A DNA stretch of 64,000 bases from an uncultured Gammaproteobacteria bacterium (GCA_964573235.1 CAZNIV010000001.1:3709-67708), one strand, 5' to 3'. Counted from the first letter of the stretch, positions 27,592 to 63,967 are shown. Notes: a model not told the origin generated them from the letters alone. Made by a program: numbers and translations.

Positions 27592-27594
27592 ATC

Positions 27595-28654: not shown

Positions 28655-28692
28655 ACTATATATATTTTAGCAAATTTTTACACTTTAGGCGA

Positions 28693-29952: not shown

Positions 29953-29961
29953 AAATTTAAA

Positions 29962-30108: not shown

Positions 30109-30120
30109 ATATTTAAAAAA

Positions 30121-40880: not shown

Positions 40881-42593
40881 CTATTTACGATAAATAAAAA
40901 TACTTTTTTCTAAGCCACTAATAGATGTTCCTGAATCATAATTCATGTCTGGAGCCACATCAATTACTAAATTTTGATTATCAAAACTATTAATTTCAAA
41001 GGCACCATCTGTAACTTGGCGCTTTAAACCATTTTCAATATACCATACATAGCCAGAATCTTGATACTGAATAAGTGAACCGTTGGGATATTTACTTTCT
41101 GCCGTTAAAATGCAATCACGATTATTAATATAATCAAGTTCAAAAGCATTTTGAATCAATTTAACCCGCTTTTTAAATGAATTACCATATAAAGATAAGG
41201 CTGCTGACTCATCAAAAATCTGACACAAACCAGCACCTGGAGTAACTGCGTAAGTACGAGGGCTATTTTCAAATTTAATTAATGTGCCTGCCCGCACTGT
41301 CACATTAGAACCAATTCTTAACTGATCAAACTCATCCTGACTAATAACCTTAATTCCCTGCTCTGCCCAAGTACCCTTATACCAAGTCCAATAAGTATAT
41401 TCATTAGAAAATAAGTGACGGATATTATTTTGATCAATATAATAAACTGCTGAGGAATTAGATAATTTAGCCACATATCCCCTACTTGGATCAATAGAAG
41501 CCGTTACTACACTATCTAAAGCCAACCCCGCATTAATCCGACCGGCGCCTAATTCATCCTTATAATCAACATTTTGATTATCCACTTTAACGGCCGATGA
41601 CATTAGTACATCAATAATTTGCTTAGGGGTGGCTGAAGGATCTTTGGATTTTACTAAAGCGGCCACCCCAGAAATAATTGCCGAGGCCATAGAAGTACCA
41701 TTCCAATAAGCGGAGTAATAATTTTTGAAACCTTCTTTTTGCACCGAATAAAAAGCCAAACTTTCAATAAACTCTCCTGGGGCCACCAAATCTACACAAC
41801 TATCTCCATAATTAGAAAAAATTGATTTAATATCGGTATTATCAACCGAAGCTACTCCCAAAATAATATTATTATCCGAATTATTACCATAGCAAACAGG
41901 ATATTTAGGTGTCGCATTTAAATCAATACCCTTGCCATTATCACCATTACCAACTGCCGCTACCACTAAAACACCTTTTTTACTGGCCCAATTAATTGTT
42001 TCTTGCAAGGAATCAGAAAAATTATCACCCACTAAACTTAAATTAATAATAGAGGCGCCATTATTTACCGCATACTTAATAGCATTAACCAAACTAGCCA
42101 CATTACCTTCACCATTAGAAGAAAGCACCCTTAAAGCCATGATCTTAGCATTAAAAGCAACGCCAGTTATACCTTCGCCATTATTTGCCGTAGCGGCAAT
42201 GATACCAGAAACTGCTGTACCATGGTGCATACCAAAATTATTATAACCCGTTTCAAATTTAGGTTTTGGATCGTTAGTACCAGTTATAAAATCCCAACCC
42301 CGAACATCGTCAATATAACCATTACCATCATCATCCTTCCAGTTACCTGGAATCTCTTTATTGTTAGTCCAAATATTGGATTTTAAATCTGGGTGGTCAA
42401 TATCAATACCGGAATCTAAAACCGCTACAATCACACCATCACCCTTAGCACTATCCCAAGCCTTTTCTGCATTAATCTTAGATAAATACCATTGGTCGCC
42501 ATATAATGGATCCGATGGCACATAAGCATTGACCGGCAAGGCCGACAAAAATAAGGAAAATATTATTATAAACGGTATTGTTTTTTTAAACAT
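40881..42593 (-). CDS. Secreted subtilisin-like serine peptidase (S8) with C-terminal ~190-aa conserved module shared with two giant surface proteins
   Basis: Signal peptide; Asp (AVLDSGID), His (HGTAVSG) and Ser (GTSMASA) triad motifs; C-terminal module SAVYYID...PNGSLIQYQDSGYVWYIENG. Confidence 0.85.
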   Translation of the reverse strand: MFKKTIPFIIIFSLFLSALPVNAYVPSDPLYGDQWYLSKINAEKAWDSAKGDGVIVAVLDSGIDIDHPDLKSNIWTNNKEIPGNWKDDDGNGYIDDVRGWDFITGTNDPKPKFETGYNNFGMHHGTAVSGIIAATANNGEGITGVAFNAKIMALRVLSSNGEGNVASLVNAIKYAVNNGASIINLSLVGDNFSDSLQETINWASKKGVLVVAAVGNGDNGKGIDLNATPKYPVCYGNNSDNNIILGVASVDNTDIKSIFSNYGDSCVDLVAPGEFIESLAFYSVQKEGFKNYYSAYWNGTSMASAIISGVAALVKSKDPSATPKQIIDVLMSSAVKVDNQNVDYKDELGAGRINAGLALDSVVTASIDPSRGYVAKLSNSSAVYYIDQNNIRHLFSNEYTYWTWYKGTWAEQGIKVISQDEFDQLRIGSNVTVRAGTLIKFENSPRTYAVTPGAGLCQIFDESAALSLYGNSFKKRVKLIQNAFELDYINNRDCILTAESKYPNGSLIQYQDSGYVWYIENGLKRQVTDGAFEINSFDNQNLVIDVAPDMNYDSGTSISGLEKSIFIYRK

Positions 42594-45251: not shown

Positions 45252-47369
45252 TTACTTTTTTACTTCCGAGGCTTTACTCTTAATAATTGCATCGTTTACC
45301 TGTTTTATAAACTTATCCGACCAACTCTTTAATTCCGGATCTAAATTAATTGCCTCATTAGCTTCGCTTAAGGCATAATCAAATTGGCCAGTCATAGCCA
45401 TAATCATAGCCAATTGACGATGCGATTCGGCATTCTTAGTATCTAATTTAACCGCCGCTAATGATGTCTCAATAGCTTTATTCATATAAGTAGCTACCCG
45501 ATCTTTTGATCCAATACTATTTAAATACATACCATAATATAAATAAGCATAAGCTACTTCATAATACATTAAAGGGCGACCTGGGCTTAATGATAAAATA
45601 TGCTCTGCTGCCTCTGCGCTTTCTTTAAATCTTTCTGGTTTAAATTGACCATAGGTAGTATTAAAACGCAACCAAACTAAATAATTAGAAACATTATTTG
45701 AATTTTCAGCAATCATCTTATCTAAAGAAATTTCTACGCGATCTGCAGTTTTTGCCACAAAATCCTGACTAATATTACTAGAATTAGCTATTTGATCTAA
45801 TAAATTAGCATACTGACGATAATACTCTTGATTACCTGGAGTATTCTCACTAATAGCATCTTCTAAGTTTTGCATCCTTTGTTCTATGTTCGCACCTTGG
45901 TCACCGAGCGCCTTAATTACCAACTTATTAGCATCTAACGGAATTAAAACCACGGCATATAAAGCCGGCACAAATAATAAAGTAAAACCGACAAGGGTGA
46001 TCATCTTAAATTGTGTCCGACCCAAAACTTCACCCTTACTTTCTGGATTAAACAAACCAATTAAGGCAATCATTAGAAATAAGGGAATGTATGTAACTAG
46101 GGCCTCAAAAATAAACATATTCTGAACACAATACGCCATCATGGCTAAAGTGGCCCAAACCGGAATAAAATAGCGATTACTTAGTTGAGGATTTTTAATA
46201 AAATGACGCCACAAGAAAAATAACGGCACAAATAATAACGCCAAATACGACAATAAACCAAAAATACCACCAGTCAATAAGCGATCCAAAAACATATTAT
46301 GTGAACGATCGAACCACGGTTCTGTCATGGTCGGCGAAAAATACTTATCAAACGGCTGATAAAAATTTTCATACCCCCAACCTAAAATTGGACGCTCTTT
46401 AAATCCCTGCCAAGCCGCCTTCCAAACAATCATACGATTCAAACCAGTTCCCTCGCTAACAGAAATACTAGTAATACGAGTTAATAAGCTACTATTTTTA
46501 ACAAAATCTGAATTTTTGTTTACAAATACCCATACTCCAAAAAAGATACTAGCGCCATAAGTTAAGCCAATAAACCAAAGCCAAAAACGCCTAACTGTTA
46601 AATTATAACTACCAATATAAAACAACACTCTTTGATGTGGCCAAAAGTAATAAACTAAATATAATCCAAAAAGCGCAATCGATAAAGCCAAGCCAATCAT
46701 GCCCCCGCGGGTTAAACTATAAAAAACAATGTAACTAGAAGCTAATATGCTAATAAAATAATAAATTCTAGCCCAAATATTCTGCCTCTTAAACAACAAG
46801 AATAAGGCAAAAAAAGCAACAAAAATCATATAACCAGCCATATAGCCAGCGTTGCCCAGTGAGCCAGAAATACGAGTACTGGCATCAAAATGAAACCAAC
46901 CCCATTTAAATAATTGATCTAGACCAATAAAAAACTGAGCCAAACCTGCCACTAAAAAAATATCCAAAGCCAACAACCAATCTTTCATTTTACGCAAAAA
47001 ACCAGTAGTAATTAATAAGAAGATAAATAAATGAATTAACAATAAAATACCTTCGCTGCGCTCATTATTACTCCAAAAACTATGATAAAAGTAATCTCCT
47101 GCCAAAGAAGCAATGGTAATTAATACCAAATAAAGTGCCATTAATCCGCCAGACAAGTTCAAACGTAAACGATATTCCGGATTATTTAAAGCCAATAGTA
47201 AATAAGCTAACAACATCACTTCTATTGTGGTGTTAAATATGTAAGTTTTAGTAGTGATAAATGGAAAAAACAAATGCCCATCAACAAACAAGGGTACAAA
47301 CATAATAACGCCCAAACCAAGCCATAACAGCGATTTAGCGATAAGGTTTACAGTCGGATTATTCTTCAT
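45252..47369 (-). CDS. Wzy_C (O-antigen ligase/polymerase-like) polytopic membrane protein with C-terminal TPR domain
   Basis: ~12 TM helices; Wzy_C loop motifs (SRISGSLGNAGY, ILGWGYENF, HNMFLDRLLTGGIFG with a conserved His); C-terminal TPR-like helical repeats. Confidence 0.6.
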   Translation of the reverse strand: MKNNPTVNLIAKSLLWLGLGVIMFVPLFVDGHLFFPFITTKTYIFNTTIEVMLLAYLLLALNNPEYRLRLNLSGGLMALYLVLITIASLAGDYFYHSFWSNNERSEGILLLIHLFIFLLITTGFLRKMKDWLLALDIFLVAGLAQFFIGLDQLFKWGWFHFDASTRISGSLGNAGYMAGYMIFVAFFALFLLFKRQNIWARIYYFISILASSYIVFYSLTRGGMIGLALSIALFGLYLVYYFWPHQRVLFYIGSYNLTVRRFWLWFIGLTYGASIFFGVWVFVNKNSDFVKNSSLLTRITSISVSEGTGLNRMIVWKAAWQGFKERPILGWGYENFYQPFDKYFSPTMTEPWFDRSHNMFLDRLLTGGIFGLLSYLALLFVPLFFLWRHFIKNPQLSNRYFIPVWATLAMMAYCVQNMFIFEALVTYIPLFLMIALIGLFNPESKGEVLGRTQFKMITLVGFTLLFVPALYAVVLIPLDANKLVIKALGDQGANIEQRMQNLEDAISENTPGNQEYYRQYANLLDQIANSSNISQDFVAKTADRVEISLDKMIAENSNNVSNYLVWLRFNTTYGQFKPERFKESAEAAEHILSLSPGRPLMYYEVAYAYLYYGMYLNSIGSKDRVATYMNKAIETSLAAVKLDTKNAESHRQLAMIMAMTGQFDYALSEANEAINLDPELKSWSDKFIKQVNDAIIKSKASEVKK

Positions 47370-49029: not shown

Positions 49030-49069
49030 GAGGTAAATAAAAAGTAGCCACTTAATTAAAATGGCTACT
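49030..49069 (-). terminator. Intrinsic terminator downstream of the Cys-rich giant protein gene
   Basis: 8-bp stem AGTAGCCA/TGGCTACT with an 11-nt loop; on the minus strand it is followed by TTTTTATTTA. Confidence 0.65.
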
Positions 49070-49097
49070 TTATCTAAATGATTTTAACTATACAAGA

Positions 49098-52000
49098 TTA
49101 AAGTGATGGCGTTATTTTTAATTTTGTGGTTCTAGCTTCTAGGGTTGGCTTTAGTTGCACATAAAAATTATAATAGTTAGAAGTATAAACCTTATCATCT
49201 ATAGATATCTGGAATATACCATTGCAAGTCGTGGCACTACCATCGACAAAAACAAATTGATTTGAATCAATGGGCATTGAGAAGTTTTTAGAAAAAAATG
49301 GCTGCTGATCTTGTTTAATGGTTGGATTAGAATAACAAGTGAACTTATTATTATAATATGGCGCTAATTTGTCAAAAAATCTCTTTAATGTGAAATCAAC
49401 CGTATAAGATCCACTACCAATATCTGTGGCCGTCATTGAATCTACATCTAACATGTGACTTAATTCTAATGGAGCTGGGATAGTTTCACTCTCAATGTTT
49501 CCGTCAGTAGTAACTTTTTTAACGCTAACCTGGCAATTATCAGCAAGTAAATCAGACAATTTAACTCCATCAATGGTTATAACCTTAAACTGATAACCTT
49601 TTTTACCTCCAAGATCAACCCATTCTCCAAAATCATCTGGTCTATCGAGATTCATCTCTACGGGTAAATCATCCACAAAAAATGTCTGAGCAGAAACAGT
49701 TCTATCTTCTTCTTGGCTACCACATTTATAATGCGCCACTAAAGCATCTCCATTTTTAACATCACCTTTAACAAAAGCATAAATATCGAAAGGATTAGCT
49801 TCGTTACCAATCTTATTTGAGCTTATAGTACGGATACCATCACCTATTTTTAATTCCAAAGTGGCGGAGGAAATATGTATATAAAGGTTAGCAATAAAAT
49901 AGCTCTGGCAACCGTCTTGACGATAAGTAAATTGAAGTGTCTGATTTGCTTTTAGGTATATTCTCTTGTAAGGAATATTATAACCTAGATCAGTTGGAGG
50001 ATCAAACATATCTCCGCTGGTTAATTCTTTACCATCAACCAAATAAGAAAGACCTGAAATTGGGCGTGTATAAGGAAAATCTACGGCAATTTTTAAAGTG
50101 GTTTTATTAACAAAAGATTGAATGTCAAGCGTACTACTACAATAATAACTCCCGTTAGGAACTACTAACTTTTGAGTGTACTGCTCTTTATCTACAATAA
50201 AATCTTCTGTTACTAGCCTCTCACAGATACCATTATTATTCTTAAAATCTTTTGGACATATTACTGATTTACCGATAGTCACCCCTGTCGACTTGTCATT
50301 GAAACTTGTCAGATCAATACAAGTACCCTTTTTGGTAGCATCGTAAGTTGGTCCACCTGGTGAAAAAGATATAGTATAATCTTCTGGGAAATTAGAAGTT
50401 AATATAATCGAAGATAAGCCATAAAAACCAGTTGGAAATGATACGGTACTAGTGCCTTGTTTGTAATAATCAGTATAATATCCACTTTCATTTTTACAAC
50501 CGTAAGCATTATAGCCTTCGACTAGAGCCGTTTTATCGTAAGCCGTATAGGTAGTGCCGCTATTAGTTTGATCAGGGAATTTTGGAGTTCCAACACCCAA
50601 AGCATTGACAATACTACCAGAGAAAGAGTACCTCACCCCTCTAATTAAACCCTTTATAACCATCGGTTCACTACTAGTCGCTGAAAAATATATATCCTTT
50701 AAGCCATAGACTGGGTCATGAACATAAATAGTCTTTTTAGTCTTTGGATCGGTAGAAGTACTAACCCTATAAACAGAAACTAAATAACCAGTGATTGGCA
50801 AATTACCCGTATCAACACCTTGGGTATCAATAAAAATCTCTGCCCCACCCATAATATTGGTGACACTCTTTGGGGCGCTAGAAACAGAAGTTGTAATTGG
50901 AGTAATAGCCACTGATTTAGCGGAAGCTAGACTAGTACCGTAACCATTATTAACAGTCGCTGTGAAAGTATAAGCGACGCCCGGAAGAAAACCCGTAGGA
51001 AAAGTAACTGGGCTATAAGCACTGATGGCAATTAGTCTACCTTTATCGCTCTGGTCAATTGGAGTGGTTGGCTCGGCTATAACTGTATATTTAATTGGTG
51101 AAGCGCCACTCTTATTTTCGGGCATAAGAATATCAACCTGAACACCAGATGATGTGGCGAGAAAATAATTAGCAAAGGTTTTATAGCCATTTGCATAAGC
51201 GTGGGGTAAAACGGAACTTGGCGTAGCTGGTCCAACCGGGGGAATAACCTGAATTGATGAGGATTTAATACTGGTGCTTTGACCATTATAATTAGCCAAA
51301 GATACATTAAAGGTATAGTAAGCGCCTGGTTCGAATTTACTAGAAACAATAATGGGCGAGCCAACTTTAGAAGAGCCGCCACCAACAAGAGAAGAATTAG
51401 CAACACAGTCTGGACAATTCTTATAAGTACCCACCGACTGATACGCAACATAAGTGTTTGTCGTCTGGGTTTTGGCATTACGACAAACATCCACAGTAGA
51501 ATTGGTAGTACAACCAAGAATACTTCCTTTGTCTATAGGTTCAGTAAAGGTTAGTTTGATTTGGGGATTAGCAGTTTTATTTGGATATAGGTCACCACAA
51601 GTCCAAACATATGAAGGAGGTGTAATTCCAAGAGTAGCTTTTTCGCATTGAGTTGGATTTCTAACGGGCAATGAAACTGAAGCTAACAAATTAGTTGGGG
51701 GGTTGGGAGCAATCTTGGTATAGCACTTACCATCACCACCCGAAACACCAGGAGCACTACAAGCTGATGCTCCACAAGTTGGCGGATTATTCATACCATT
51801 AACACAAACACACGATGTACCCGATAATTTAGTACCAGAGGGACAAGTAGTTACGGAAGGAGGGGTACAAGTTGGCGGATTAGTGCCACCATTAGCGCAA
51901 ACGCAAGTATTATTGCTAGATAAAATAGTTTTTCCACTACAAACTGGCGTGGTTGACAAAGTACAAGTTGGTGGATTAGTCTTGCCATTAGCGCAAACAC

Positions 52001-52727
52001 AATTGGATCCTGAACGAATCGTACCAGAAGGACAAGTAGCTACTGGAGGGGTACAGGTTGGTGGATTAGTACCACCATTAGCGCAAACGCAAGTATTATT
52101 ACTAGACAGGATAGTTACACCACCACAAACTGGCGTAGTTGGCAAAGTGCAAGTTGGTGGATTGGTTTTACCATTAGCGCAAACACAGGCATTACCTGAC
52201 AAATAAGTTCCCGCAGCGCAAGCCATAGGGGGAGTACATGTAGGGTAATTCTTTCCACCATTAGAACAAACGCAACTATTAGATGCAGTAGAAAAGAAGC
52301 CAACAGAAGCACAAGGCGCTACTGGCAAGGTACAGGTTGGTGGGTTAGTTTTACCATTAGAACAAACGCAAAAACCATTAGATAAAAAAGTGCCGACAGC
52401 ACAAGTTTTTGGAGTGGAGCAAATCGGATAATCGTTAGCACTATTAATACAAACACATTGATTGTTAACAATTTTAGCATTGGCTGGGCAAATAATACCA
52501 TTACCTACCGACGGAACAATGCTACACGTTGGGTAATTAGTCGCTCCGTTTGAACAAGCACATGTACCATTAACCACTTTAGCTGTCGCTGGACAAACGA
52601 CCTGAGTTGAAACCGAACTAATAGCCGCAAAGGCCAATCCCCCAGTCACTGCCAAGGCTAGGGTTAAAACAATCGCTTTTGTACTAATTTTTGTTAAAAT
52701 CCCAACTGACATTTGCGTTTTTGTCAT
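49098..52727 (-). CDS. Giant (1209 aa) secreted/surface protein with ~12 tandem Cys-rich ~33-aa modules followed by a beta-rich region
   Basis: Signal/TM segment at the N-terminus; repeated C-x(7-9)-CxCxNGxTN(P/Y)PTC(T/S) modules at aa ~45-330; a strong intrinsic terminator follows downstream. Confidence 0.7.
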   Translation of the reverse strand: MTKTQMSVGILTKISTKAIVLTLALAVTGGLAFAAISSVSTQVVCPATAKVVNGTCACSNGATNYPTCSIVPSVGNGIICPANAKIVNNQCVCINSANDYPICSTPKTCAVGTFLSNGFCVCSNGKTNPPTCTLPVAPCASVGFFSTASNSCVCSNGGKNYPTCTPPMACAAGTYLSGNACVCANGKTNPPTCTLPTTPVCGGVTILSSNNTCVCANGGTNPPTCTPPVATCPSGTIRSGSNCVCANGKTNPPTCTLSTTPVCSGKTILSSNNTCVCANGGTNPPTCTPPSVTTCPSGTKLSGTSCVCVNGMNNPPTCGASACSAPGVSGGDGKCYTKIAPNPPTNLLASVSLPVRNPTQCEKATLGITPPSYVWTCGDLYPNKTANPQIKLTFTEPIDKGSILGCTTNSTVDVCRNAKTQTTNTYVAYQSVGTYKNCPDCVANSSLVGGGSSKVGSPIIVSSKFEPGAYYTFNVSLANYNGQSTSIKSSSIQVIPPVGPATPSSVLPHAYANGYKTFANYFLATSSGVQVDILMPENKSGASPIKYTVIAEPTTPIDQSDKGRLIAISAYSPVTFPTGFLPGVAYTFTATVNNGYGTSLASAKSVAITPITTSVSSAPKSVTNIMGGAEIFIDTQGVDTGNLPITGYLVSVYRVSTSTDPKTKKTIYVHDPVYGLKDIYFSATSSEPMVIKGLIRGVRYSFSGSIVNALGVGTPKFPDQTNSGTTYTAYDKTALVEGYNAYGCKNESGYYTDYYKQGTSTVSFPTGFYGLSSIILTSNFPEDYTISFSPGGPTYDATKKGTCIDLTSFNDKSTGVTIGKSVICPKDFKNNNGICERLVTEDFIVDKEQYTQKLVVPNGSYYCSSTLDIQSFVNKTTLKIAVDFPYTRPISGLSYLVDGKELTSGDMFDPPTDLGYNIPYKRIYLKANQTLQFTYRQDGCQSYFIANLYIHISSATLELKIGDGIRTISSNKIGNEANPFDIYAFVKGDVKNGDALVAHYKCGSQEEDRTVSAQTFFVDDLPVEMNLDRPDDFGEWVDLGGKKGYQFKVITIDGVKLSDLLADNCQVSVKKVTTDGNIESETIPAPLELSHMLDVDSMTATDIGSGSYTVDFTLKRFFDKLAPYYNNKFTCYSNPTIKQDQQPFFSKNFSMPIDSNQFVFVDGSATTCNGIFQISIDDKVYTSNYYNFYVQLKPTLEARTTKLKITPSL
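51740..52600 (-). repeat. Tandem coding DNA repeats (~99 nt unit in a ~190-200-nt higher-order repeat, ~85-90% identical) inside the Cys-rich giant protein gene
   Basis: For example 51841..52000 versus 52031..52190: ggacaagtag...gttggtggattagt...ccattagcgcaaac... recurs. This also produces the repetitive antisense ORF at 51883..52206. Confidence 0.8.
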
Positions 52728-52766
52728 ATTAATTATATTCGAAGATTAAACTAAATAATTTATAAA

Positions 52767-53867
52767 TTAAACCCATTCCTTAATCACCTTCTCAACATCA
52801 CCAGAATCTACGGTTACCACTCCAGTACTACTTAAATCTTTTTCTATTCTCTCACGGATTTCTATTAGCTTTATTTTTTCTTTTTCTGACTTACATGCCA
52901 ATATTTCCTGATCTTTTTGTTGAATTTTTTTCCACAAATCTTTAACCTCCAAATGGGCTGAGGCTGCCACCTGATAAAGAACACTAGGAAGTGCTGGGTG
53001 TAAATGCGCCACCTTAACCATAGCTGCCGCCTCGTCTAAAGCATCCAAAGCCTTATCTGGTAGCTTTCTATTCTTAATCATTTTTTCGGTTAATTTAACG
53101 GCCATTTCTAGAGCCGAATCGGTAAACTCAACCTTATGATATTCTCTATATTTATTCTTAACCCCCTTAAGAATTGTCATGGTTTCTTTGATTGTTGGCT
53201 CTCTTACTTCAATTAATTGAAAACGGCGCTCTAACCCAAGATCGGTTTTAAAATATTTTTCATATTCTTCAAAGGTAGTAGCACCAATCATTTGTAAGTC
53301 ACCACGCGCTAAGGCCGGCTTTAAAATATCAGATAAATTAATCGATCCCTCTGATCCCTGTGATTGAATTAAAGAATGTACCTCATCCACAAATAAAATA
53401 ATTGATCGATTAGAGTTGACTATCTCTTGAACAATCTTTTTAGCTCTCTGTTCAAATTCACCACGATACTTAGTGCCCGACATTAAAGTAGCCACATCTA
53501 AGGCCAAGACTCGCTTACCCAATAATGCCTCAGGCACATCGCCACGAGCAATACGCTGAGCAAAGCCTTCCACGATAGCGGTTTTACCCACACCAGGGGC
53601 ACCAATTAAAATAGCGTTATTTTTTTCTCGGCGCGATAAAATCTGAGTCAATTTACGAACTTCTTCTTCTCGTCCGATAACCGGATCTATTCGGCCTTTT
53701 TCAGCAAGGTCTGTAAAATTACTAGAATACTGATCAAGAAATGGCGAGCGAGAACCATGGTAATTAGCAGGCATTGCCATAATGCCACCACTATTGCGTT
53801 TTACTAAAAAATATATTACCGCCGCCGCCACTACAATTAAAGCGAATAGATACTGTGAAGTAAACAT
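52767..53867 (-). CDS. Membrane-anchored AAA+ ATPase consisting of a ClpA/ClpB first nucleotide-binding domain (D1) only
   Basis: N-terminal TM helix; ILIGAPGVGKTAIVE Walker A; Walker B FVDEVH; alignment to ClpB D1 plus the start of the coiled coil, then the protein ends. No D2 is present. Confidence 0.7.
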   Translation of the reverse strand: MFTSQYLFALIVVAAAVIYFLVKRNSGGIMAMPANYHGSRSPFLDQYSSNFTDLAEKGRIDPVIGREEEVRKLTQILSRREKNNAILIGAPGVGKTAIVEGFAQRIARGDVPEALLGKRVLALDVATLMSGTKYRGEFEQRAKKIVQEIVNSNRSIILFVDEVHSLIQSQGSEGSINLSDILKPALARGDLQMIGATTFEEYEKYFKTDLGLERRFQLIEVREPTIKETMTILKGVKNKYREYHKVEFTDSALEMAVKLTEKMIKNRKLPDKALDALDEAAAMVKVAHLHPALPSVLYQVAASAHLEVKDLWKKIQQKDQEILACKSEKEKIKLIEIRERIEKDLSSTGVVTVDSGDVEKVIKEWV

Positions 53868-53927
53868 AAAAAATAAATTTAAATTTAACCTTATTATACT
53901 ATTTTTGATTAATTATGACAAATTTAA

Positions 53928-53964
53928 TAAGGCTCTTACTATTTAGTTAGAGCCTTATTTTTAT
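53928..53964. terminator. Stable hairpin between the 1213-aa gene and the AAA+ gene (possible attenuator/terminator)
   Basis: 9-bp perfect stem TAAGGCTCT/AGAGCCTTA with a 12-nt loop. A T5 run follows on the + strand; the minus-strand side is only moderately U-rich. Confidence 0.4.
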
Positions 53965-53980
53965 CAAAACTTAAAGTTAT

Positions 53981-56900
53981 TTACTCCTTAGCATAATCCC
54001 CTTCAAACGAATTTTGAACCGTAATTATTTTAGTGGCATATTTTGTACCAAAAAGGGCTTTAGCCTCGTTGGCGTCAACTAATTTTAATTTTCCCATAGA
54101 AACAACTTTATACATTCTTGGGCTATTACTAAATTTAATTAAATTAGCACCTGGCTTAGCTGTTACATTGTCAGCAATTTCAATATTATCAAATTCACTT
54201 TGAGAAATTACTTTTAACTTATTATTAGCAGTAAGTTTTGACCAAGAAGCCGATTCCCAAGTTCTAAAAGTTACCAAGTTAGGGTAAAGATGCTTTTTTA
54301 AATCAGCATCGATGTAATAAATAGCACTGCTATCGGTAGTCTTAATGTAATCACGAAAAACCGGGGTATAAACGGTAATACTACCATCGGCATTAATAAT
54401 AGATGAATCAATATCATCTACAACGCCTTGAGTGGTGGTGGCATTATCAATATTTTCTTGATCTTTTAGAGTAATTGTCTTACTTAATACCAAAGAAGCA
54501 ATACCACTAGTGGAATAATATTTTAAATAAATTGTATATTGACCATTAATTTGAGGTAAGGCGAAAGAAATCTTTGACTTATGCGGCAAAACGCTAACAT
54601 TAGTAAAATTACTATTTAACGAAATAGCATAGCCACTAACAGTTGCTGGATCACCATTCATGGTAATATCTAATACTGAAGAATTGGTTGAGGTGGCCCC
54701 ATTATTAACCAACAAAGATAATGGCACCCCGTAAAGACCAGTTGGGGTAACGGAAGCTGAGCCACCTCCACCACCTCCGCCTCCGCCGCCAGTATCACTA
54801 GTAATATTCATCAATCCACAATTCAAATGCATCGATAAAGAACCGGAAGTTACTGTTACACTCGCCGTCTTAGCTCCAGAAGATGAATAATCTTTATTTA
54901 TCGTAGCTACTGTTCCCGCTAAGCCGTCGGTACCTGTCCAAAAATAAGTAAAAATACCATTTCCTCCAGAAGCTTGAACTGACCAATTTACTCTAGTTCC
55001 CGTAATTGCAGAAGTGGTATTAGGACTACAAGAAGCAGTGACATTGGGAGTAATTACTGTGATACCAGGAATCTTATATCTAGAAATAGTTCCTTTAAGG
55101 AAATAATAAATATAAACATCACTTATATCAAAGCCACCGTTAATTGTGCCTTCGCCAATAACCTTAATAGAATAACTATTATTTCTTGGATCTATCGCAA
55201 ACACACCATTACTTGCCAATCCCCAAATTCTACCGTCTGGACCAACTTTCAAAGCACTATCGGGTGCACCCCTTAATACAGGGATATTATTCAAAAAAGT
55301 TATTTCATGAGTAGCTGGATCAAATTGGAATATTTTTGTATAAAAACCACCCATTTCAACAGCGGTTCCGTAAACCTTTCCATCTGGCGTAGTAACTAAA
55401 CTTTTAATTTCTGAAGTATTACTAAGTTCAGATGATGTATAGGATATGGCTTTAGCAATTGGATCCCAAATAAATATTTTAGCGGAAGTGTTTGGAGTAG
55501 CAGTAGACCCTTCACCACCCCTAATACTAGTGCCTCCGATAATCTTTCCATTCCAATTAGTTAGTGAAATCACCGCTTGATTAGAAATTATGTTTTCGTA
55601 AACAGTAATCTCCTTAGTGTCTGGGTTCCATACAGAAAAGGTCCCTCCCAGTTTACCATAACCACCAACAGCACCAATATATACTAAGCCATCATCACCA
55701 TAAACCATGCCTCTCGGCCTCCAAGCAATGGGAATATTTGTACCCTGATCAGACTTAAGGCCCGGCGCCGGATTTAATAAAGGCGAAGATAAATTTGTAT
55801 TTACCGCCTTACTTGTATCAAATATCAATAAACGCCCGCCGAAATAACTAGCCCCCAATAATGAAGATTCCCCGTAAAGTAGATATGAATATATTTGACC
55901 AAAATTAGAATTGCCAACTTCTATAATCTGTTTAGTATCGGGATCTACCTTGAAAAAAAACCCAGAAACATATGTGCCAGAATACAATTTTTTATCTTGC
56001 CCCACTATCAACCTCTGTAACATAACCTCTTTTGTAGGCCTTTCTTTTTCAAAACTAACTGAAATAACTTTATTCTCGACTGTACTATAATATCCAATCT
56101 CAGATTTTATATTGTCTATCCCCAAATATTTTCCATTATAAATTCTACCAGCAGAACTGGTTTTAAAATCTGCAAAAGCTATTTCAGTGGCTACACCATC
56201 TTTCAAGCTAAAATATTTTTTTGTTGCACTCCCATTAGTAAGTATTTCTATTTGAGCAGCCACCCCACCATCAGAGGTTATTCCTCCATCTTTAGAAGTC
56301 TGATAAACACGACCAAATTGTTCATTCACGGTTGCGGGATAATCAAGAATTGTTCTATAAGTACCATCAGCAATTTTATATGCCACTACTTTTTGTCTAG
56401 TTGAACCTACGCCAGCATAAACATATCCATCTTTTCCGGCCGCGATAAAATGAACATAACTCTCGGTCGGCTCAATTCTACCAATATCAGTAATTTTTGA
56501 AGTTACTGGATCGTAACTAAAAAGCTTGGCATTAGGATAACTGCCACCATACAATTTTCCATCGCTACCCCAAGCTAACCCATATATCCAGGTTGTCGTA
56601 GCTGTATCTACCGCTCCGAGATCATCAATCGTTTCTTTATTTGCATCTAAATTTGTATTTATTCTAAGTAAATGACCGGTTGGATATCCACCCAAATATA
56701 TATTATTATCTGGCCCGATTATCATTCCATTATCTCCCTGATCAGTAAAAGCTTCTGATTGAAAATGTTTTTCTATTTTACCGGTAATATTATTAACCCT
56801 AATAACCGATGTTTTATTATGCGCATAGCCTATACTAATATAGGTACTATCATTTAAAACGACGTAATTTAAAACCAGGCCATTACCTGTATATGTCGCA

Positions 56901-57622
56901 ATTTTTTCTACCGTGCCCTCTGCGGCGTCTGGTAAGCTACCATCTTCATTATTATAACAAATACCATTACTACTAATTACATCAATGGCACTATCACAAC
57001 ACTTAGGAGTACAACCCACACTACTACATTGAGTAATATAATATTCACCAGAATCATCGCCACAACAACCCGACTGACCAAGGCTAGTATATTCACCAAA
57101 GGCCATATTTTCTCCGCTCAAAACACCACCACCTTCTTTTCCACAAACAGCAGGCGAACTACAATAAGCACTTGACCAACGATCGCAATCCAGCCAAGTT
57201 CCACCGGTACCACCACCATACTGCCAACAGAAAGCCTTGTTATCATTTCCTCCAGGATTCAAATCAGAATACATTCCTAATTTATTGACATTATTCCCTG
57301 AAGCAAAACATTTTCCATTTTTATCTACGCAATCACTTGAATTAGAACAACAAGACTGAACCGTACCATTAGCCCACTCTACCCCCGGAATATAACTTAC
57401 AGCTATTGATGATTTTAAAAATGGGTTAGAGCTATTTGCCTCACACACGGACTGGGCATAGGCAGGATATCCTTTTATTACTTCGGATATTAACTGGCGA
57501 GGTGCTTGAAATTTAAAGAAAAGGCCACTGGCAATAATTAAAATACTAAAAAATAAAACGCCACTTAAAATAAATTTTCTACTTATCTTGTAAGTTATTT
57601 CTTTAAATTTTGAGTAAAGCAT
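53981..57622 (-). CDS. Giant (1213 aa) membrane-anchored surface protein: Cys-rich region, beta-propeller-like repeats, PKD-like domain, poly-Gly tract, C-terminal shared module
   Basis: N-terminal TM segment; multiple CC/CxC clusters; repeated YxxG/LYSG propeller-like motifs; GTRVNWSVQASGGNGIFTYFW (PKD-like); G11 tract; C-terminal SAIYYID...AKALFGTKYATKIITVQNSFE. Confidence 0.7.
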   Translation of the reverse strand: MLYSKFKEITYKISRKFILSGVLFFSILIIASGLFFKFQAPRQLISEVIKGYPAYAQSVCEANSSNPFLKSSIAVSYIPGVEWANGTVQSCCSNSSDCVDKNGKCFASGNNVNKLGMYSDLNPGGNDNKAFCWQYGGGTGGTWLDCDRWSSAYCSSPAVCGKEGGGVLSGENMAFGEYTSLGQSGCCGDDSGEYYITQCSSVGCTPKCCDSAIDVISSNGICYNNEDGSLPDAAEGTVEKIATYTGNGLVLNYVVLNDSTYISIGYAHNKTSVIRVNNITGKIEKHFQSEAFTDQGDNGMIIGPDNNIYLGGYPTGHLLRINTNLDANKETIDDLGAVDTATTTWIYGLAWGSDGKLYGGSYPNAKLFSYDPVTSKITDIGRIEPTESYVHFIAAGKDGYVYAGVGSTRQKVVAYKIADGTYRTILDYPATVNEQFGRVYQTSKDGGITSDGGVAAQIEILTNGSATKKYFSLKDGVATEIAFADFKTSSAGRIYNGKYLGIDNIKSEIGYYSTVENKVISVSFEKERPTKEVMLQRLIVGQDKKLYSGTYVSGFFFKVDPDTKQIIEVGNSNFGQIYSYLLYGESSLLGASYFGGRLLIFDTSKAVNTNLSSPLLNPAPGLKSDQGTNIPIAWRPRGMVYGDDGLVYIGAVGGYGKLGGTFSVWNPDTKEITVYENIISNQAVISLTNWNGKIIGGTSIRGGEGSTATPNTSAKIFIWDPIAKAISYTSSELSNTSEIKSLVTTPDGKVYGTAVEMGGFYTKIFQFDPATHEITFLNNIPVLRGAPDSALKVGPDGRIWGLASNGVFAIDPRNNSYSIKVIGEGTINGGFDISDVYIYYFLKGTISRYKIPGITVITPNVTASCSPNTTSAITGTRVNWSVQASGGNGIFTYFWTGTDGLAGTVATINKDYSSSGAKTASVTVTSGSLSMHLNCGLMNITSDTGGGGGGGGGGSASVTPTGLYGVPLSLLVNNGATSTNSSVLDITMNGDPATVSGYAISLNSNFTNVSVLPHKSKISFALPQINGQYTIYLKYYSTSGIASLVLSKTITLKDQENIDNATTTQGVVDDIDSSIINADGSITVYTPVFRDYIKTTDSSAIYYIDADLKKHLYPNLVTFRTWESASWSKLTANNKLKVISQSEFDNIEIADNVTAKPGANLIKFSNSPRMYKVVSMGKLKLVDANEAKALFGTKYATKIITVQNSFEGDYAKE
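54761..54790 (-). repeat. GC-rich (GGN)10-11 triplet tract encoding poly-Gly (G11) in the 1213-aa protein
   Basis: ccacctccaccacctccgcctccgccgcca on the + strand, inside an AT-rich gene. Confidence 0.8.
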
Positions 57623-58080: not shown

Positions 58081-58752
58081 ATGAAACTCAATCCTAAATC
58101 AAAATATTTGCAGATTGCTTTTAATAGCCCGATTGATGAAGTTAAGGCTATGCTTGATTTACTCCCCGCTTCCGATAAAATCATTATTGAAGCAGGAACG
58201 CCCTTTATTAAGCAATATGGTAATTTTGGCATAACCGCCATTAATACTTGGTGGCGAGAAAAATTAGGCAAAAAAGGCTACATTGTTGCCGATTTAAAAT
58301 GCATGGATAGAGGTTCAACCGAAGTGGCTACCGCCGCCCAAGCTGGCGCTTCTGCCGTTACCTGTTTAGGCTTGGCGCCAATTGAAACTATCAACGAATT
58401 TATCAAAAAATGCCAAGAGCTAAAAGTTGATTCCATGATCGACATGATGAATGTAGAATTTCCTTTTGAAATATTGCAAAAATTAACCAAATTACCAAAT
58501 ATTGTTGTTTTACATCGTGGCGTTGATGAAAACACCCATAACCGAGAAAAACAACTTCCCCACCACTTAATAAACCGCATTAAGGGCGCCTATGGTAAAG
58601 TTTTAATTTCTATTGCGGGTGGCGAAACAACTAAAGATATAACTAGAACTTTTTTTAATAATGCCGATATTGCTGTGGTGTGGCGACCTTTTTATGAAAC
58701 CCCAGAAAAAACTACGCTATTAGCCGAAGATTTTTTGAAGTTGCTAAAATAA
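58081..58752 (+). CDS. 3-hexulose-6-phosphate synthase / 3-keto-L-gulonate-6-P decarboxylase-like protein (OMPDC suprafamily), paralog 1
   Basis: LQIAFNSP (beta-1), IIEAGTPFIK, DLKCMD (DxKxxD), LHRGVDE and IAGG align with HPS/KGPDC (LQVAIDL, IIELGTPLIK, DMKTMD, HAGLDE, VAGG). The beta-1 Asp is Asn. Confidence 0.75.
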   Translation: MKLNPKSKYLQIAFNSPIDEVKAMLDLLPASDKIIIEAGTPFIKQYGNFGITAINTWWREKLGKKGYIVADLKCMDRGSTEVATAAQAGASAVTCLGLAPIETINEFIKKCQELKVDSMIDMMNVEFPFEILQKLTKLPNIVVLHRGVDENTHNREKQLPHHLINRIKGAYGKVLISIAGGETTKDITRTFFNNADIAVVWRPFYETPEKTTLLAEDFLKLLK

Positions 58753-58754
58753 TT

Positions 58755-59831
58755 ATGAATCTAGAAAAACAAAAAAAATCAAACGAGAAAAATTTTCAGC
58801 AAATGATTTCGTCGCTTTTTCCCTTCGTATTTGTTGCTGTGTTTATGGCTTTTAAATTTAATATCATACTTGGTTTTATTATTTTATTTTTTATTATTAT
58901 ACTAATCAAAGGCAAAAAGGCTTTTATTCCTGCCATCAAAGAAATTATCCGACAAGCAAATGAGGAGCAAAAAAGAGCCCAGACTAATTATCAAAATAAT
59001 AAAACAAGCTCAAAAAATATTCGCGGTACTTTTTCTATCGATTCCGAGATTGACGAAATAAACCCACCAACTACATCACTCAATAATCAAAATCCCGAAA
59101 CCAAAAGTGAATCAGAAACCCCCGGAATTTCGATAATCCCCTTTACTGCCTTGTCTTTCATGCCATCGGTCGCACCTAGGCTAGAAAAACGAAAAAGATA
59201 TTTGCAAATTGCCCTTAACGGCAAAATGAGCGAAGCAGAATCTATTGCCAGAAATTTGCCAACCTCTGATCGTATTATTGTAGAAGTAGGTACGCCACTT
59301 CTCAAGGCTCGCGGAATTAATGCTATTGAACGCCTTCGCGCCATTATTGGCGAAAATACTTACATTGTGGCCGATAATAAATGTGCTGACTTAGCCGATC
59401 GCGAAGTGGCTATGATGGCTAAAGCGGGCGCTAATGGCGCCACCTGCCTAGGTGTAGCCCCAATTGAAACCATTAACAGTTTTATCGCCGAATGCCAAAA
59501 GCAAAATATCGACGCTATGATTGACATGATGAACGTAGAAAATCCACTCATGGTTTTACAAAAGTTAAAAACCATGCCTAAGGTGGTAATTGTTCATCGA
59601 GGCGTTGATGAAAGCGAAATTTCTAAAGAAAAACAAATCCCCTACTACCAAATCAAACAAATCAAAGGCAATTATAATATTATGGTAGCGGTAGCCGGTG
59701 GCGATACTATCAAAGAAGCGCAAAGCGCTTTATTTAACGATGCCGACATTGTAATTACTTGGAAAGATTTTTATCAGTCTAATCAAAAAACGGCCCAGTT
59801 GGCTGAGTCGTTTTTGAGTGAAGTTAAATAA
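58755..59831 (+). CDS. HPS/KGPDC-like protein, paralog 2, with N-terminal TM anchor and low-complexity linker
   Basis: The C-terminal ~215 aa are collinear with paralog 1 (LQIALNGK, IVEVGTPLLK, DNKCAD, VHRGVDE, VAGG). The N-terminal 140 aa comprise a TM helix plus an N/S/T/E-rich linker. Confidence 0.7.
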   Translation: MNLEKQKKSNEKNFQQMISSLFPFVFVAVFMAFKFNIILGFIILFFIIILIKGKKAFIPAIKEIIRQANEEQKRAQTNYQNNKTSSKNIRGTFSIDSEIDEINPPTTSLNNQNPETKSESETPGISIIPFTALSFMPSVAPRLEKRKRYLQIALNGKMSEAESIARNLPTSDRIIVEVGTPLLKARGINAIERLRAIIGENTYIVADNKCADLADREVAMMAKAGANGATCLGVAPIETINSFIAECQKQNIDAMIDMMNVENPLMVLQKLKTMPKVVIVHRGVDESEISKEKQIPYYQIKQIKGNYNIMVAVAGGDTIKEAQSALFNDADIVITWKDFYQSNQKTAQLAESFLSEVK

Positions 59832-63700: not shown

Positions 63701-63967
63701 AGGAATAGTCATTACAGCGCTAGAACGTAACTTGTTAGCTACGAAAGCATCGGAAGTGACTAAGCTCTTCTGACCATTTTGAATCATGTATACGTCCTCA
63801 GAACCCTGGTACTTAACCAAAGAACCATTAGGTAAATTGGAAGAAGTGGTCAAGGAAACGCCATCCTTAGTATAGTTAGTCTCAAAAGAAGACTGGATGG
63901 TGACTACTTTGGAGGCATAAGTTGTACCGTAAAGAGCCTTGGCAGTTGCATCATCGAGCAAGCTCAA
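60791..63967 (-). CDS. Large (1058 aa) low-complexity T/S/A/G/V/N-rich, Cys-free surface (S-layer-like / Ig-like beta-sandwich repeat) protein; N-terminus carries the shared module
   Basis: N-terminus is MSLLDDATAKALYGTTYASKVVTIQSSFE...PNGSLVKYQGSEDVYMIQNG. There is an in-frame stop 9 codons upstream of the Met and no signal peptide. A strong terminator follows downstream. Confidence 0.6.
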   Translation of the reverse strand: MSLLDDATAKALYGTTYASKVVTIQSSFETNYTKDGVSLTTSSNLPNGSLVKYQGSEDVYMIQNGQKSLVTSDAFVANKLRSSAVMTIPSTMTYTTGASITAEVAAIANPVATATAGGSTTPVVGGLTVALAAATPASTNIASGTAFNPVLKVNLTAGNADVTVTALTLKKAGFVSNTNTVTGIDIIDNAGVRHGNMASSINADNEVVLLFGNTDAVKVPANSTVTLTVRINTGSAAISGTVQFGIASVAAITSNATIGGSFPIWGNSMSLINSNNTVGTVTASMKYVVGATATMNIDATSAQDITKINILTGSAEKVKVSSVTLYNNGNAADTDYKDVELVDSTGAVLATAQPKGNYVTFNLATPYAIDKGMNKDLTVRLKVVGTTDRTIDLVVYNNYDIVVTGNDTGASLIDTASGFPMGTGVNKVTIGKGTMTLAKSSDSPNAAVTPGTSNVVLAKYDVKASGENMELRKISLGLNQVTGLTGSVYVKVNGSSVYSETPTAGNHEVTLQSYYTLTAGQTAVVTVEANVASTATSSNSFVATFDVTSVKRLLTNDIIDPTVSAITANTINVQIGVLKVTTLSTPVAHTTVNVNDHELANIELNANNSGEAVKVSSIVMNDLMGGAGVATQVSNLRMQINGVTVETSNSTSNNAASTTYNFKTPIVVAKNTNVVVKLIGDITGSTSTATHTFSAYGVSAVGQDTGNTVDATKAGSGQAIALTTSGSLNIALVTGSTATPSNAQVKTVGTNDGTYFALTMTARNEALKLRTLKLTATGTALVMNDIRNIRVYVGSASQPILTANQMDSCSSNVCSVTFTSTDNLLASTIGTTDATAITLYVKADIGAKGIAQLGHDFAFRIASSTADIIAVGATSGNAASTVAGSAIGTGYTYIAPAIVTVDAVSPTTATQLSQAAGNTLGIFKITNTGTKAITLTGVKFVKDGGSNVATFGLAVSGDGQSSFNTDISTTSSSVDFGTNFSSSIQGGSYRYLTVKNATAASSTDAVTLSANSNIGDITYSIDEAVYGDDANGNGTQTEVITGLKVVGNPSTATVTLKN

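Follow-up and report, generated by a model that had tools for sequence, protein, structure and literature searches.

An orphan extracytoplasmic protein of a Patescibacteria bacterium with an anciently duplicated cysteine-module array in a putative stalk

Rib and alpha C of group B streptococci and SasG/Aap (E-G5) are repeat-stalk surface proteins of monoderm bacteria. EGF, furin-like and ephrin-receptor-like modules are disulfide-stapled short beta-hairpins strung into rods, with six Cys per module in EGF and CxxC-containing patterns in the furin-like type. In Patescibacteria, large surface-targeted proteins containing FN3 domains are routinely taken to be candidates for host interaction (PMC13059738).

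The protein described here is encoded in a window of 64,000 nucleotides, the whole stretch of DNA analysed, by a gene on the minus strand at 49098..52727 (1209 aa plus stop codon in the ORF list). This ORF is a real gene, and its product is an orphan multidomain extracytoplasmic protein. The same protein was present in the NCBI MAG GCA_037133135.1 (P0001), labelled hypothetical, and the whole 1209-aa sequence gave no match in Pfam, NCBIfam or PHROG. A phage or prophage structural protein was rejected, with no PHROG family, no tblastn match in 50,697 phage records, and cellular genes as neighbours.

MreB was 73–78% identical to that of Patescibacteria MAGs, and on this basis the host is placed within the Patescibacteria (CPR), as the initial annotation had proposed. 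Anoxic water is the habitat of many Patescibacteria, and the genome was observed to encode, as is typical of anaerobes, a NiFe hydrogenase together with Fe-S proteins.

The N-terminus (aa 1–39; 52611..52727, minus strand) carried the sole hydrophobic segment of the protein, a putative signal or signal-anchor. Its 19-residue core (aa 18–36, AIVLTLALAVTGGLAFAAI) reached a Kyte-Doolittle value of 2.3, with the rest of the protein at or below 1.15, and was preceded by K3, K13 and K17; positive residues followed by one hydrophobic helix are the arrangement of an exported or N-terminally anchored protein. In the homologues P0002 and P0010, the equivalent N-terminal site was occupied by a hydrophobic stretch of 21–22 residues, rather longer than expected of a cleaved signal and more anchor-like in appearance. 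The single helix would direct export of the protein and probably tether it to the membrane. No C-terminal anchor was found, the whole 1209-aa protein having no hydrophobic segment outside aa 18–36. A sortase-anchored cell-wall protein was also rejected: the sole LPxTG-like match, LPITG at aa 643 (conserved in P0002), belongs to an FN3 domain and is not followed by a hydrophobic tail.

Behind this segment, an array of nine four-Cys modules extended over aa 45–322 (51762..52595, minus strand), as established by regular expression, module table and shuffle test, and the original description of a large Cys-rich modular protein behind an N-terminal signal or anchor was thereby borne out. It was followed by a half module (aa 323–335, CSAPGVSGGDGKC; 51723..51761, minus strand) which, as read from the sequence, consisted of the hairpin only (C323..C335), without the loop. 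Of the 54 Cys in the protein, 38 lay within aa 40–340. The module pattern was seen nine times; when these residues were shuffled 20,000 times, it appeared 0.18 times on average and four times at most. In the DNA, a core of 39 nt occurred nine times at a spacing of 87–105 nt.

Each module, 28–35 aa long with four Cys, followed the spacing C-x(10-12)-C-x-C-x(9)-C and comprised a hairpin (C-x10-12-C), one residue, a loop (C-x-NG-x-T-N-[PY]-P-T-C) and a Pro/Thr linker of 4–10 residues. About 12 modules with a C-x(7-9)-C spacing had been proposed initially; the four Cys per module stood, but the count came to nine complete modules plus one half, and the first spacing was longer. Modules 3–8 consisted of two types, A and B, in alternation. 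Among 20 modules from five proteins, the loop N and the four Cys were invariant, and G and P were at least 90% conserved.

Searches of the module against Pfam, NCBIfam and PDB families gave no match, and the 295-aa Cys region yielded nothing in Pfam, at E values up to 10, but an irrelevant 13-bit match. An AlphaFold2 model of four Cys modules reached a pLDDT of 51, and Foldseek with this low-confidence model returned E values of 0.27 or worse and no credible fold match. Membership in the EGF-like, furin-like, ephrin-receptor-like and TNFR repeat families was rejected on the grounds of no Pfam match, only four Cys, no CxxC and no fold match; the Cys-knot-, EGF- or TNFR-like fold suggested initially is at most a candidate one. 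When the module profile was compared with PDB sequences, only the C-terminal C-x-NG-x-W-[ST]-x-P-P-x-C motif of factor H CCP domains matched, with whole-sequence E values of 0.03–0.3 and no single stretch passing. A Sushi/CCP domain was likewise rejected, the modules being 28–35 aa long, without Trp and of only sub-threshold motif similarity, and the CCP likeness is treated as probable motif convergence.

Beyond the half module, a poorly conserved region with six Cys (aa 336–500; 51228..51722, minus strand) was 32–36% identical to P0002 and, by inspection only, appears to end in an FN3-like C-terminal strand motif, FEPGAYYTFNVSLANYNG. Two FN3 domains followed (aa 501–611 and aa 612–716; 50580..51227, minus strand). 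Residues 524–730 were matched by about 150 FN3-repeat proteins with E values down to 4e-25, and three sampled matching proteins (P0011, P0014 and P0017) contained 5–9 Pfam fn3 domains each. At the PF00041 cut-off of 25 bits, aa 324–717 scored below the threshold (20.8 bits), compared with 37.8 bits for the equivalent region of P0002; FN3 membership thus appears convincing via transitive homology, not via the direct Pfam score.

The second FN3 domain (aa 612–716), the third FN3-like one if the preceding region is counted, showed the highest conservation within the protein, with 78% identity to P0002. It was adjoined by a conserved domain without family assignment (aa 717–836; 50220..50579, minus strand; 73% identity), and the two together, at 73–78%, were the best conserved parts against that homologue. 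The aa 717–836 domain carried the motif AYGCK...FNDK...ICPxxFxNNxGxCE, had no match in Pfam and was also found as a stand-alone domain in two small secreted proteins, P0029 (E 4e-12) and P0050 (E 2e-9). The C-terminal, family-defining region (aa 837–1209; 49101..50219, minus strand) was 30–37% identical to P0002 and P0010. In total, about 490 residues after the FN3-like domains were without annotation and predicted to be all-beta; the AlphaFold2 model of the C-terminal region was also all-beta, at a pLDDT of 41.

Relatives were sought in about 15 billion proteins, and the family came to three members in the databases searched, with nine modules in the present protein, three in P0002 and none in P0010. 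P0002, 44% identical, combined its three modules with a Pro/Thr-rich linker of about 50 residues, and these modules paired best with modules 2, 6/8 and 9 of the window, so internal units were probably gained or lost. Between P0002 and P0010, the anchor was 63% and the C-terminal ~400 aa were 58% identical, while the middles were unrelated. The region aa 837–1209 was the sole part common to all three members.

The reading favoured here, with confidence evenly balanced for and against, is that of an anchor–stalk–head extracytoplasmic protein of a Patescibacteria bacterium with an anciently duplicated Cys array in the stalk. The nine modules would make up the portion of a spacer that is closest to the membrane, each probably containing two independent disulfide-closed elements, a C1–C2 beta-hairpin and an 11-residue C3–C4 loop (CxNGxTN[PY]PxC), joined by short Pro/Thr linkers. 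Three FN3-like domains would lengthen this spacer, and aa 717–836 together with aa 837–1209 would constitute the distal functional head, presumably binding a host or substrate surface. Since the head is without family annotation, binding is only the default reading for it. We infer that the Cys array may be an exchangeable, probably disulfide-stapled spacer presenting the conserved C-terminal head.

The loop was also found outside this family. CxNGx[TS][ND][YP]PxC together with a T-P-P linker occurred in the uncharacterised proteins P0004/P0007, P0005 and P0079, of which P0079 combined full hairpin+loop modules with a prepilin N_methyl motif. The gene for P0004 comes after T2SSE and PilS genes, and that for P0005 lies near a PilS gene. 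Arrays of the loop only, with two Cys per 13–16 aa, were present in P0003, P0004, P0006, P0007 and P0009, and in P0152 loop and hairpin were joined by other linker lengths without C-x-C. Loop and hairpin therefore appear to be separable units, given these loop-only arrays, the joining in P0152 and the hairpin-only half module of the window.

This distribution bears on whether the Cys array itself might be adhesive or ligand-binding, as a multivalent lectin- or receptor-like structure, with the FN3 and C-terminal domains serving, for example, in cell wall or S-layer attachment. The recurrence of the loop in type IV pilus-locus proteins, maybe minor pilins or tip adhesins, the conservation of the loop NG and P, which suggests a specific shape, and a low dN/dS all agree with such a role. 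However, P0010 possesses the anchor and the C-terminal domain without modules, and in P0002 a Pro/Thr linker replaces most of them, which a spacer fits better; the modules also sit beside the presumed membrane anchor, where a partner would have the poorest access. An adhesive array is considered unlikely.

Still less likely is release of the protein after signal cleavage, to act as an enzyme or a carbohydrate-binding protein on host or environmental polymers, with repeats and FN3 domains as linkers of the kind seen in many secreted glycoside hydrolases. At its end, the hydrophobic segment has the sequence AFA|A, which signal peptidase could plausibly cut, so release instead of anchoring would be possible, and secreted bacterial hydrolases commonly contain FN3 linkers. 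The best Foldseek matches of the low-confidence C-terminal model were GH2 beta-sandwich domains; these were unusable and carry no weight because of TM scores of 0.14–0.18, an rmsd of 13–20 Å and the model pLDDT of 41. Moreover, no catalytic family was found in Pfam or NCBIfam, and the longer hydrophobic stretch of the homologues argues for an anchor.

The upstream gene (52767..53867, minus strand), 39 bp from the Cys-repeat gene, encodes a 366-aa AAA+ ATPase (Pfam AAA and AAA_lid_9; partial NCBIfam ClpB/ClpA matches) that comprises only the ClpB/ClpA D1 part and has an N-terminal hydrophobic helix. The two genes are possibly co-transcribed; a promoter-like site was located at 53921..53893, and the ATPase neighbour was also present in contigs L003, L089 and L090. 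A terminator-like hairpin (49041..49071, minus strand), with a 13-pair stem followed by a T-run, was detected by consensus scan 27 nt past the stop codon. This is no more than a match to a pattern, and overall the region had no more terminator-like sites than its shuffled versions.

A glycan-synthesis locus (polyprenyl-phosphate sugar transferase, GT2 and GT4) adjoins the gene, in agreement with the initial annotation. A Wzy_C+TPR membrane protein, of a family that includes O-oligosaccharyltransferases, is encoded two genes away (45252..47369). The linkers of the Cys modules, whose NPPTCT motifs the initial annotation had named as possible O-glycosylation sites, are Pro/Thr-rich, a candidate, circumstantial setting for such a modification. 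At the P0002 locus, neither glycan-locus neighbours nor an AAA+ ATPase neighbour were found.

The initial annotation had further described near-identical DNA repeats over 51740..52600, in double modules of 66 aa (190–200 bp), as recently homogenised. Tandem Repeats Finder detected a double module of 186 bp, or 62 codons, at 51832..52187 (minus strand; modules 5+6 and 7+8), with 1.9 copies and 86% matches, and no other stretch showed a clear tandem repeat in its DNA. The period of 186 bp keeps the reading frame. A 143-nt core was 88% identical between the double-module copies (repeat family D2), with the third copy at 65%. The best double-module pair reached 80% identity when codon-aligned, compared with 46–71% DNA identity for all other module pairs. 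Near-identity at the DNA level was thus confined to this one stretch and did not extend over the remainder.

The comparison of modules 5+6 with 7+8 yielded a dS of 0.68 and a dN of 0.12, and in the remaining unit pairs dS exceeded 1. The longest exact direct repeat measured 29 bp (at 51886 and 52072, between modules 6 and 8). The dN/dS of about 0.17 between the best copies points to purifying selection and not to diversification. The N-terminal Cys repeats arose by old, not ongoing, duplication. The array would have grown by tandem duplication of the 62-codon A+B double module, modules 3–8 representing three A+B units flanked by modules that each correspond to a single module of the homologue. 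The most recent duplication is old (dS about 0.7), with purifying selection on the copies since.

Array length was compared at the assembly level. Nine modules without any indel were found in three assemblies (the window, GCA_037133135.1 and ERZ27300082), which represent at least two genotypes, from samples that are possibly related. Contig L003 of GCA_037133135.1 differed from window positions 49114..56061 (6.9 kb) by two SNPs and no gap, and the ENA contig L089 was 100% identical over 50190..54538, the whole array included. Low-frequency copy-number variants in the population are possible.

These data leave little room for a contingency locus, in which near-identical repeats often slip, recombine or convert, so that one population comes to contain adhesin variants differing in length or antigenicity. 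The in-frame unit of 62 codons, the 29-bp exact repeat in modules 6 and 8 and the homologue copy numbers of 9, 3 and 0 would be compatible with it. The same holds for codon identity, as the same codon was used at 35 of 52 conserved residues in the best double-module pair (67%), somewhat above the 45% expected from codon usage. Classical repeat-variable surface proteins (alpha C and Rib of group B streptococci), however, have virtually identical DNA repeats, whereas here identity was 80–88% over 1.9 copies. Recent homogenisation and a contingency locus were accordingly unsupported, because of the weak DNA repeat, the dS of 0.68, the same codon at only 35 of 52 residues, the 29-bp maximum and the same nine modules across assemblies, a distinct genotype included; the purifying selection suggested by dN/dS counts in the same direction, and such a locus is considered very improbable. 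Expansion and contraction are supported on an evolutionary time scale by the module counts in the family, but not as an ongoing process. With old duplication, a variable-length stalk is a likelier look than a switchable contingency gene. Stalk length and composition would differ between lineages, a Pro/Thr linker replacing modules in one of them, and not measurably within the sampled population.

That each module uses its four Cys to coordinate a metal (Zn, Fe or Cu), making this an extracellular metal-binding or redox protein for an anoxic habitat, is similarly remote: the four invariant Cys with a C-x-C pair among them, the hydrogenase and Fe-S proteins of the genome and the fact that no disulfide-forming enzyme was seen in the window favour it, but CxxC or His ligands typical of Zn or Fe sites are missing, the loop-only relatives (two Cys per repeat) and the lone hairpin fit two independent Cys pairs better, and the motif carriers are exported proteins, e.g., pilin-like ones. 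In the anchor–stalk–head reading, disulfides in the modules are an assumption, given the anoxic habitat of many Patescibacteria and the lack of a disulfide-forming enzyme among the genes of the window.

In a wider interpretation, the hairpin+loop unit might define a repeat family not described before, bacterial, extracellular and rich in disulfides, forming a rigid, length-tunable rod in type IV pilus-associated and membrane-anchored surface proteins. In this Patescibacteria lineage, an expansion from three to nine modules would then set the reach of a lineage-specific host-binding head from the episymbiont surface. We hold this extension to be doubtful.

When the protein is set beside known systems, the similarities are partial in each case. 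Rib/alpha C and SasG/Aap share with it tandem in-frame modules whose count varies between lineages and which project a functional domain. They differ in orientation, their LPxTG anchor being C-terminal and their head N-terminal as opposed to an N-terminal anchor and a proposed C-terminal head, and their repeats are near-identical and strain-variable at the DNA level and free of Cys, compared with 50–86% identity and four Cys per module here.

Among disulfide-rich modules, the spacing C-x10-12-C-x-C-x9-C is reminiscent of C3..C6 in the EGF-like signature, and the 'CP.GT[YFW]....C' hairpins, clearest in P0079, recall the CPxGTY hairpins of furin-like, growth-factor-receptor and ephrin-receptor-like modules; the EGF, furin-like and ephrin-receptor-like signatures lack the CxNGxTN[PY]PxC loop found here. 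CCP domains have about 60 aa, an invariant Trp and Cys pairs 1–3 and 2–4, compared with modules of about 31 aa. The type IV pilus-locus proteins share the loop and the T-P-P linker, but their remainder is unrelated, and their pilin-like N-termini or pilus operons indicate a setting and not a function. The FN3-containing Patescibacteria proteins are likewise large, with a TM or signal segment, FN3 domains and a CPR genome, and like the present protein they are interpreted as candidates for host recognition; they are longer than 1,500 aa and have adhesion domains of known type (PMC13059738), whereas the head and the Cys modules of the present protein match no described family.

The target was encoded by a single ORF on the minus strand of the window (49098..52727, 1209 codons). 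Its N-terminus carried three lysines followed by a 19-residue hydrophobic stretch (aa 18–36), the sole hydrophobic segment of the protein. Nine cysteine modules of 28–35 residues each were found at aa 45–322 (window 51762..52595), with the pattern C-x(10-12)-C-x-C-x(9)-C, i.e., a hairpin (C1–C2) and a loop (C3–C4), the second half reading C-x-NG-x-T-N-[PY]-P-T-C. A tenth, partial element comprised the first cysteine pair only (C323..C335). The nine occurrences in the target compared with a mean of 0.18 and a maximum of 4 when the same residues were shuffled 20,000 times, and 38 of the 54 cysteines of the protein were located within aa 40–340. The cysteine modules described in the initial annotation were present, but their number was nine and a half instead of about 12, and the first spacing was 10–12 instead of 7–9 residues. 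No BLASTP similarity was detected between the target and the neighbouring large secreted proteins.

Two types, A (C..GT.LSG..CVCANGKTNPPTCTLPTTPV) and B (C.G.TILSSNNTCVCANGGTNPPTCTPP..T), alternated along modules 3–8, which identifies a 62-codon A+B double module, present in three copies, as the unit of duplication. At the DNA level, Tandem Repeats Finder returned a single sizeable array at 51832..52187, with a 186-bp period, 1.9 copies, and 86% matches, whose 96-bp sub-period reached 66% matches at most. An ungapped repeat search of the array yielded a 39-nt core occurring nine times, 67–85% identical to the reference copy, and a 143-nt core occurring three times (100, 88, and 65%). In module-by-module alignment, DNA identity was 78% for modules 5/7, 83% for modules 6/8, and 46–71% for all others, and DNA-level similarity persisted only in the last two of the three double modules.

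These repeats had been regarded as recently homogenised. In the codon alignment of modules 5+6 with modules 7+8, 52 of 62 residues were identical, and 35 of these 52 shared the same codon, compared with 45% predicted by codon usage within the gene. The Nei–Gojobori method gave dN = 0.12 and dS = 0.68 for this best pair (dN/dS ≈ 0.17), while dS exceeded one for the remaining unit pairs. The longest exact direct repeat within the array was 29 bp. This dS, the low dN/dS, and the short exact repeat point to an old duplication maintained by purifying selection, not to ongoing gene conversion or slippage, and recent homogenisation was not borne out.

The array was found in three assemblies, with nine modules in each of them. 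The first is the window itself, part of an 82-kb NCBI contig. The second is contig JBAXOS010000024.1 of GCA_037133135.1, which aligned gaplessly to window 49114..56061 and differed by two substitutions, one of them (Pro to Ser) located in module 9. The third is an ENA MEGAHIT contig, 100% identical across 50190..54538. Assembly collapse or expansion of the array is unlikely, as the 29-bp exact repeat is far below assembler k-mers (e.g., 141) and the three assemblies agree. The proposal of a contingency locus was not supported: the repeats are old and the array length was the same in the three assemblies compared, among which the locus showed no sign of hypervariability. In practical terms, a false lead was thereby removed. 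The first 102 nt of JBAXOS010000024.1 (1..102) were unrelated to the window, while the other 6948 nt matched at 99.97%; the gene called at the start of this contig (726 aa) was a truncated or chimeric form of the window's 1213-aa ORF, and a chimeric contig end is the likely cause.

The family of the target is very small. When 5.8 billion clusters were searched by a word-indexed method, the only matches were P0001, which is the target itself as annotated in GCA_037133135.1, and P0002, a relative of 1110 aa with 44% identity. With HMMER, run exhaustively against 1.84 billion representatives, the true family consisted of these two and P0010, the latter 34% identical over the C-terminal third; the other ~160 matches were multi-FN3 proteins aligned to aa 524–730, together with a handful aligned to the Cys region. 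A scan of GTDB species representatives gave no further relatives; a scan of JGI metagenomes gave no new member, as its matches were limited to the P0002 contig and to one bearing a near-identical copy of P0010.

Conservation between the target and P0002 differed along the protein. Identity was 78% in the third FN3 domain (aa 612–716), 73% in the next domain (aa 717–836), 47% across the aligned Cys modules, and 30–34% in the last ~370 residues. P0002 carried a Pro/Thr-rich linker of ~50 residues and then three modules, whose best partners were window modules 2, 6/8, and 9. This indicates that the ends of the array are orthologous and that the internal A+B units were either gained in the target or lost in P0002. 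P0010 contained zero modules; P0002 and P0010 were 63% identical over 46 residues of the anchor and 58% over the last ~400 residues, with unrelated middles. The aa 717–836 domain ('AYGCK...FNDK', window 50220..50579, minus strand), which has no Pfam family, recurred as the N-terminal domain of P0029 (E 4e-12) and P0050 (2e-9), both of which are small, secreted, and derived from other metagenomes.

Outside the family, the Cys region alone as query retrieved seven weakly similar proteins, to which the exhaustive search added a few. Five of the matching proteins (P0003, P0004, P0006, P0007, and P0009) consisted of 7–11 tandem loop-only copies (e.g., TCANGATNYPTCTPP), with two cysteines per 13–16 residues. 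Complete hairpin+loop modules were present in P0008 and P0079, and in P0152 the loop and hairpin were joined by linkers of different lengths, without C-x-C. The loop-only arrays, the arrangement in P0152, and the hairpin-only half module of the target show that hairpin and loop are separable units, and from this separability we infer pairing of C1 with C2 and of C3 with C4. Metal binding by the cysteine clusters is a less likely alternative, with evidence against it.

The settings of these loop and module relatives are extracellular. Proteins encoded at type IV pilus loci carried arrays of the loop CxNGx[TS][ND][YP]PxC: P0004 (5001..6512 of its contig) closed a gene cluster that also comprised a T2SSE ATPase, a PilS-type pilin, and three small genes, P0005 (4001..4720 of its contig) had a PilS gene nearby, and P0079 carried a prepilin N-methylation (N_methyl) motif. 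All three are candidates for minor pilins or for tip proteins bearing a Cys-loop rod, and the occurrence of the loop at pilus loci suggests that it is an extracellular building block that can be reused.

Searches of Pfam, NCBIfam, and PHROGs with the whole protein and three parts left both the Cys region and the C-terminus without a match, and the FN3 match was sub-threshold. For the module, nothing relevant was found in Pfam at E up to 10 and nothing in NCBIfam, and a double-module profile had no match among 5.8 billion sequences at E up to 0.01. PDB sequence searches with the full-length protein, its Cys region, and the double-module profile gave titin FN3 at E 0.05 and a spurious Fab heavy chain. 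The sole PDB similarity of the module profile was to the C-x-NG-x-W-S-x-P-P-x-C end of factor H CCP domains, sub-threshold at E 0.03–0.3 and regarded as motif convergence.

Four modules were modelled with AlphaFold2 from an alignment of 8 rows, made up of paralogous frames and of homologues. Each C1–C2 segment was predicted to be a beta-hairpin, but the mean pLDDT of 51 was too poor for use; Foldseek of this low-confidence model against PDB gave nothing credible (E 0.27 or worse). For aa 717–1209 (493 residues), with P0002 as the sole extra row, an all-beta model with pLDDT 41, likewise too poor for use, was obtained, on which a likeness to a GH2 beta-sandwich (Foldseek TM ≤ 0.18) was discarded. 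The literature on the motif strings and on CPR Cys-rich surface repeats yielded nothing relevant, PHROGs and phage records gave no phage signal for the target, and Rfam no RNA family in the window.

The MreB protein of the window was 73–78% identical to those of 'Patescibacteria group bacterium' MAGs, 68% to that of a Candidatus Buchananbacteria MAG, and ~59% to Falkowbacteria, so the proposed CPR assignment holds. Elsewhere in the window, a NiFe-hydrogenase cluster (26305..31904), with large subunit, Oxidored_q6 small subunit, and Fer4_22 and FAD/NAD subunits, contained a HypC/HupF domain fused to radical-SAM and BATS (419 aa, 28693..29952, minus strand). Immediately upstream of the surface-protein cluster were two adjacent OMP decarboxylase/HUMPS family genes (58081..58752 and 58755..59831, plus strand), the second of which was extended at its N-terminus by 148 aa.

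Downstream of the target, on the same strand, were a 523-aa secreted hypothetical protein and a 705-aa membrane protein (45252..47369, minus strand) with a Wzy_C domain of the O-antigen ligase/PglL type and C-terminal TPR repeats, for which NCBIfam gave only a weak IctB-like match. The organism is not expected to make LPS, and this protein could be a wall glycopolymer polymerase/ligase or a protein O-oligosaccharyltransferase. At lower coordinates, on mixed strands, a polyprenyl glycosylphosphotransferase, GT4 and GT2 transferases, an epimerase, a methyltransferase, and an S8 subtilase were encoded. A domain of ~100–180 aa (36–54% identity, E 5e-8 to 2e-25) was common to the subtilase (40881..42593, aa 308–559), the 1213-aa Cys-rich/propeller/PKD protein (53981..57622, aa 1039–1210), and a 1058-aa ORF at the window end (60791..63967, aa 1–101); it may be a cell-surface attachment module common in the lineage and was not found in the target.

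Upstream of the target by 39 bp was a 366-aa AAA+ protein (52767..53867, minus strand) with an N-terminal hydrophobic helix, corresponding to the ClpB/ClpA/ClpV D1 module only (NCBIfam partial, 330–350 bits, model positions ~155–400). Such a membrane-tethered single-ring Clp-like ATPase beside large exported proteins is unusual. Its gene adjoined the target in all four contigs bearing it. A promoter-like site preceded the AAA+ gene, and 27 nt past the target stop lay a hairpin of 13 pairs followed by a T-run (pattern matches only); on this sequence evidence the two genes would form one transcription unit. At the P0002 locus, a MacB-type ABC transporter lay on the upstream side, and the downstream side held folate and ribosomal genes. 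None of its neighbours was shared with the window, so no conserved operon supports a function.

The best-supported reading of the sequence is an 'anchor–stalk–head' protein that would be N-terminally tethered, or at least exported. The stalk would be formed by the Cys modules with Pro/Thr linkers and the FN3 domains, and the functional end by the conserved aa 717–836 domain and the family-defining C-terminal ~370 residues. A stalk role is suggested mainly by comparison: relatives retain anchor and head, the module array between them being exchanged, shortened, or lost, and one relative has a Pro/Thr linker where the modules sit in the target. Less likely readings, each with evidence against it, are that the Cys modules themselves are the binding part and that the protein is a released enzyme or carbohydrate-binding protein. 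For the anchor–stalk–head protein, the head would by default be taken to bind a host or substrate surface, as is usual for such Patescibacteria proteins (compare PMC13059738).

Overall, the observation in the initial annotation was confirmed in part and its interpretation found partial support: the locus encodes a real, rare, unannotated Cys-repeat surface protein of a CPR genome. Orphan hypothetical proteins with an inferred role are common in CPR genomes, and the target alone is one of them. To our knowledge, host recognition and attachment by ultrasmall CPR bacteria are largely unknown beyond type IV pili, and the target is a candidate surface-exposed factor in this recognition. A compact domain map was obtained, including the 31-aa module and aa 717–1209, with both the head domain and the Cys module absent from the curated family libraries searched. 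Interest would rise if the hairpin+loop unit were a widespread extracellular block shared with type IV pilus proteins. As it stands, the target is a variation on the familiar theme of the repeat-stalk surface protein.
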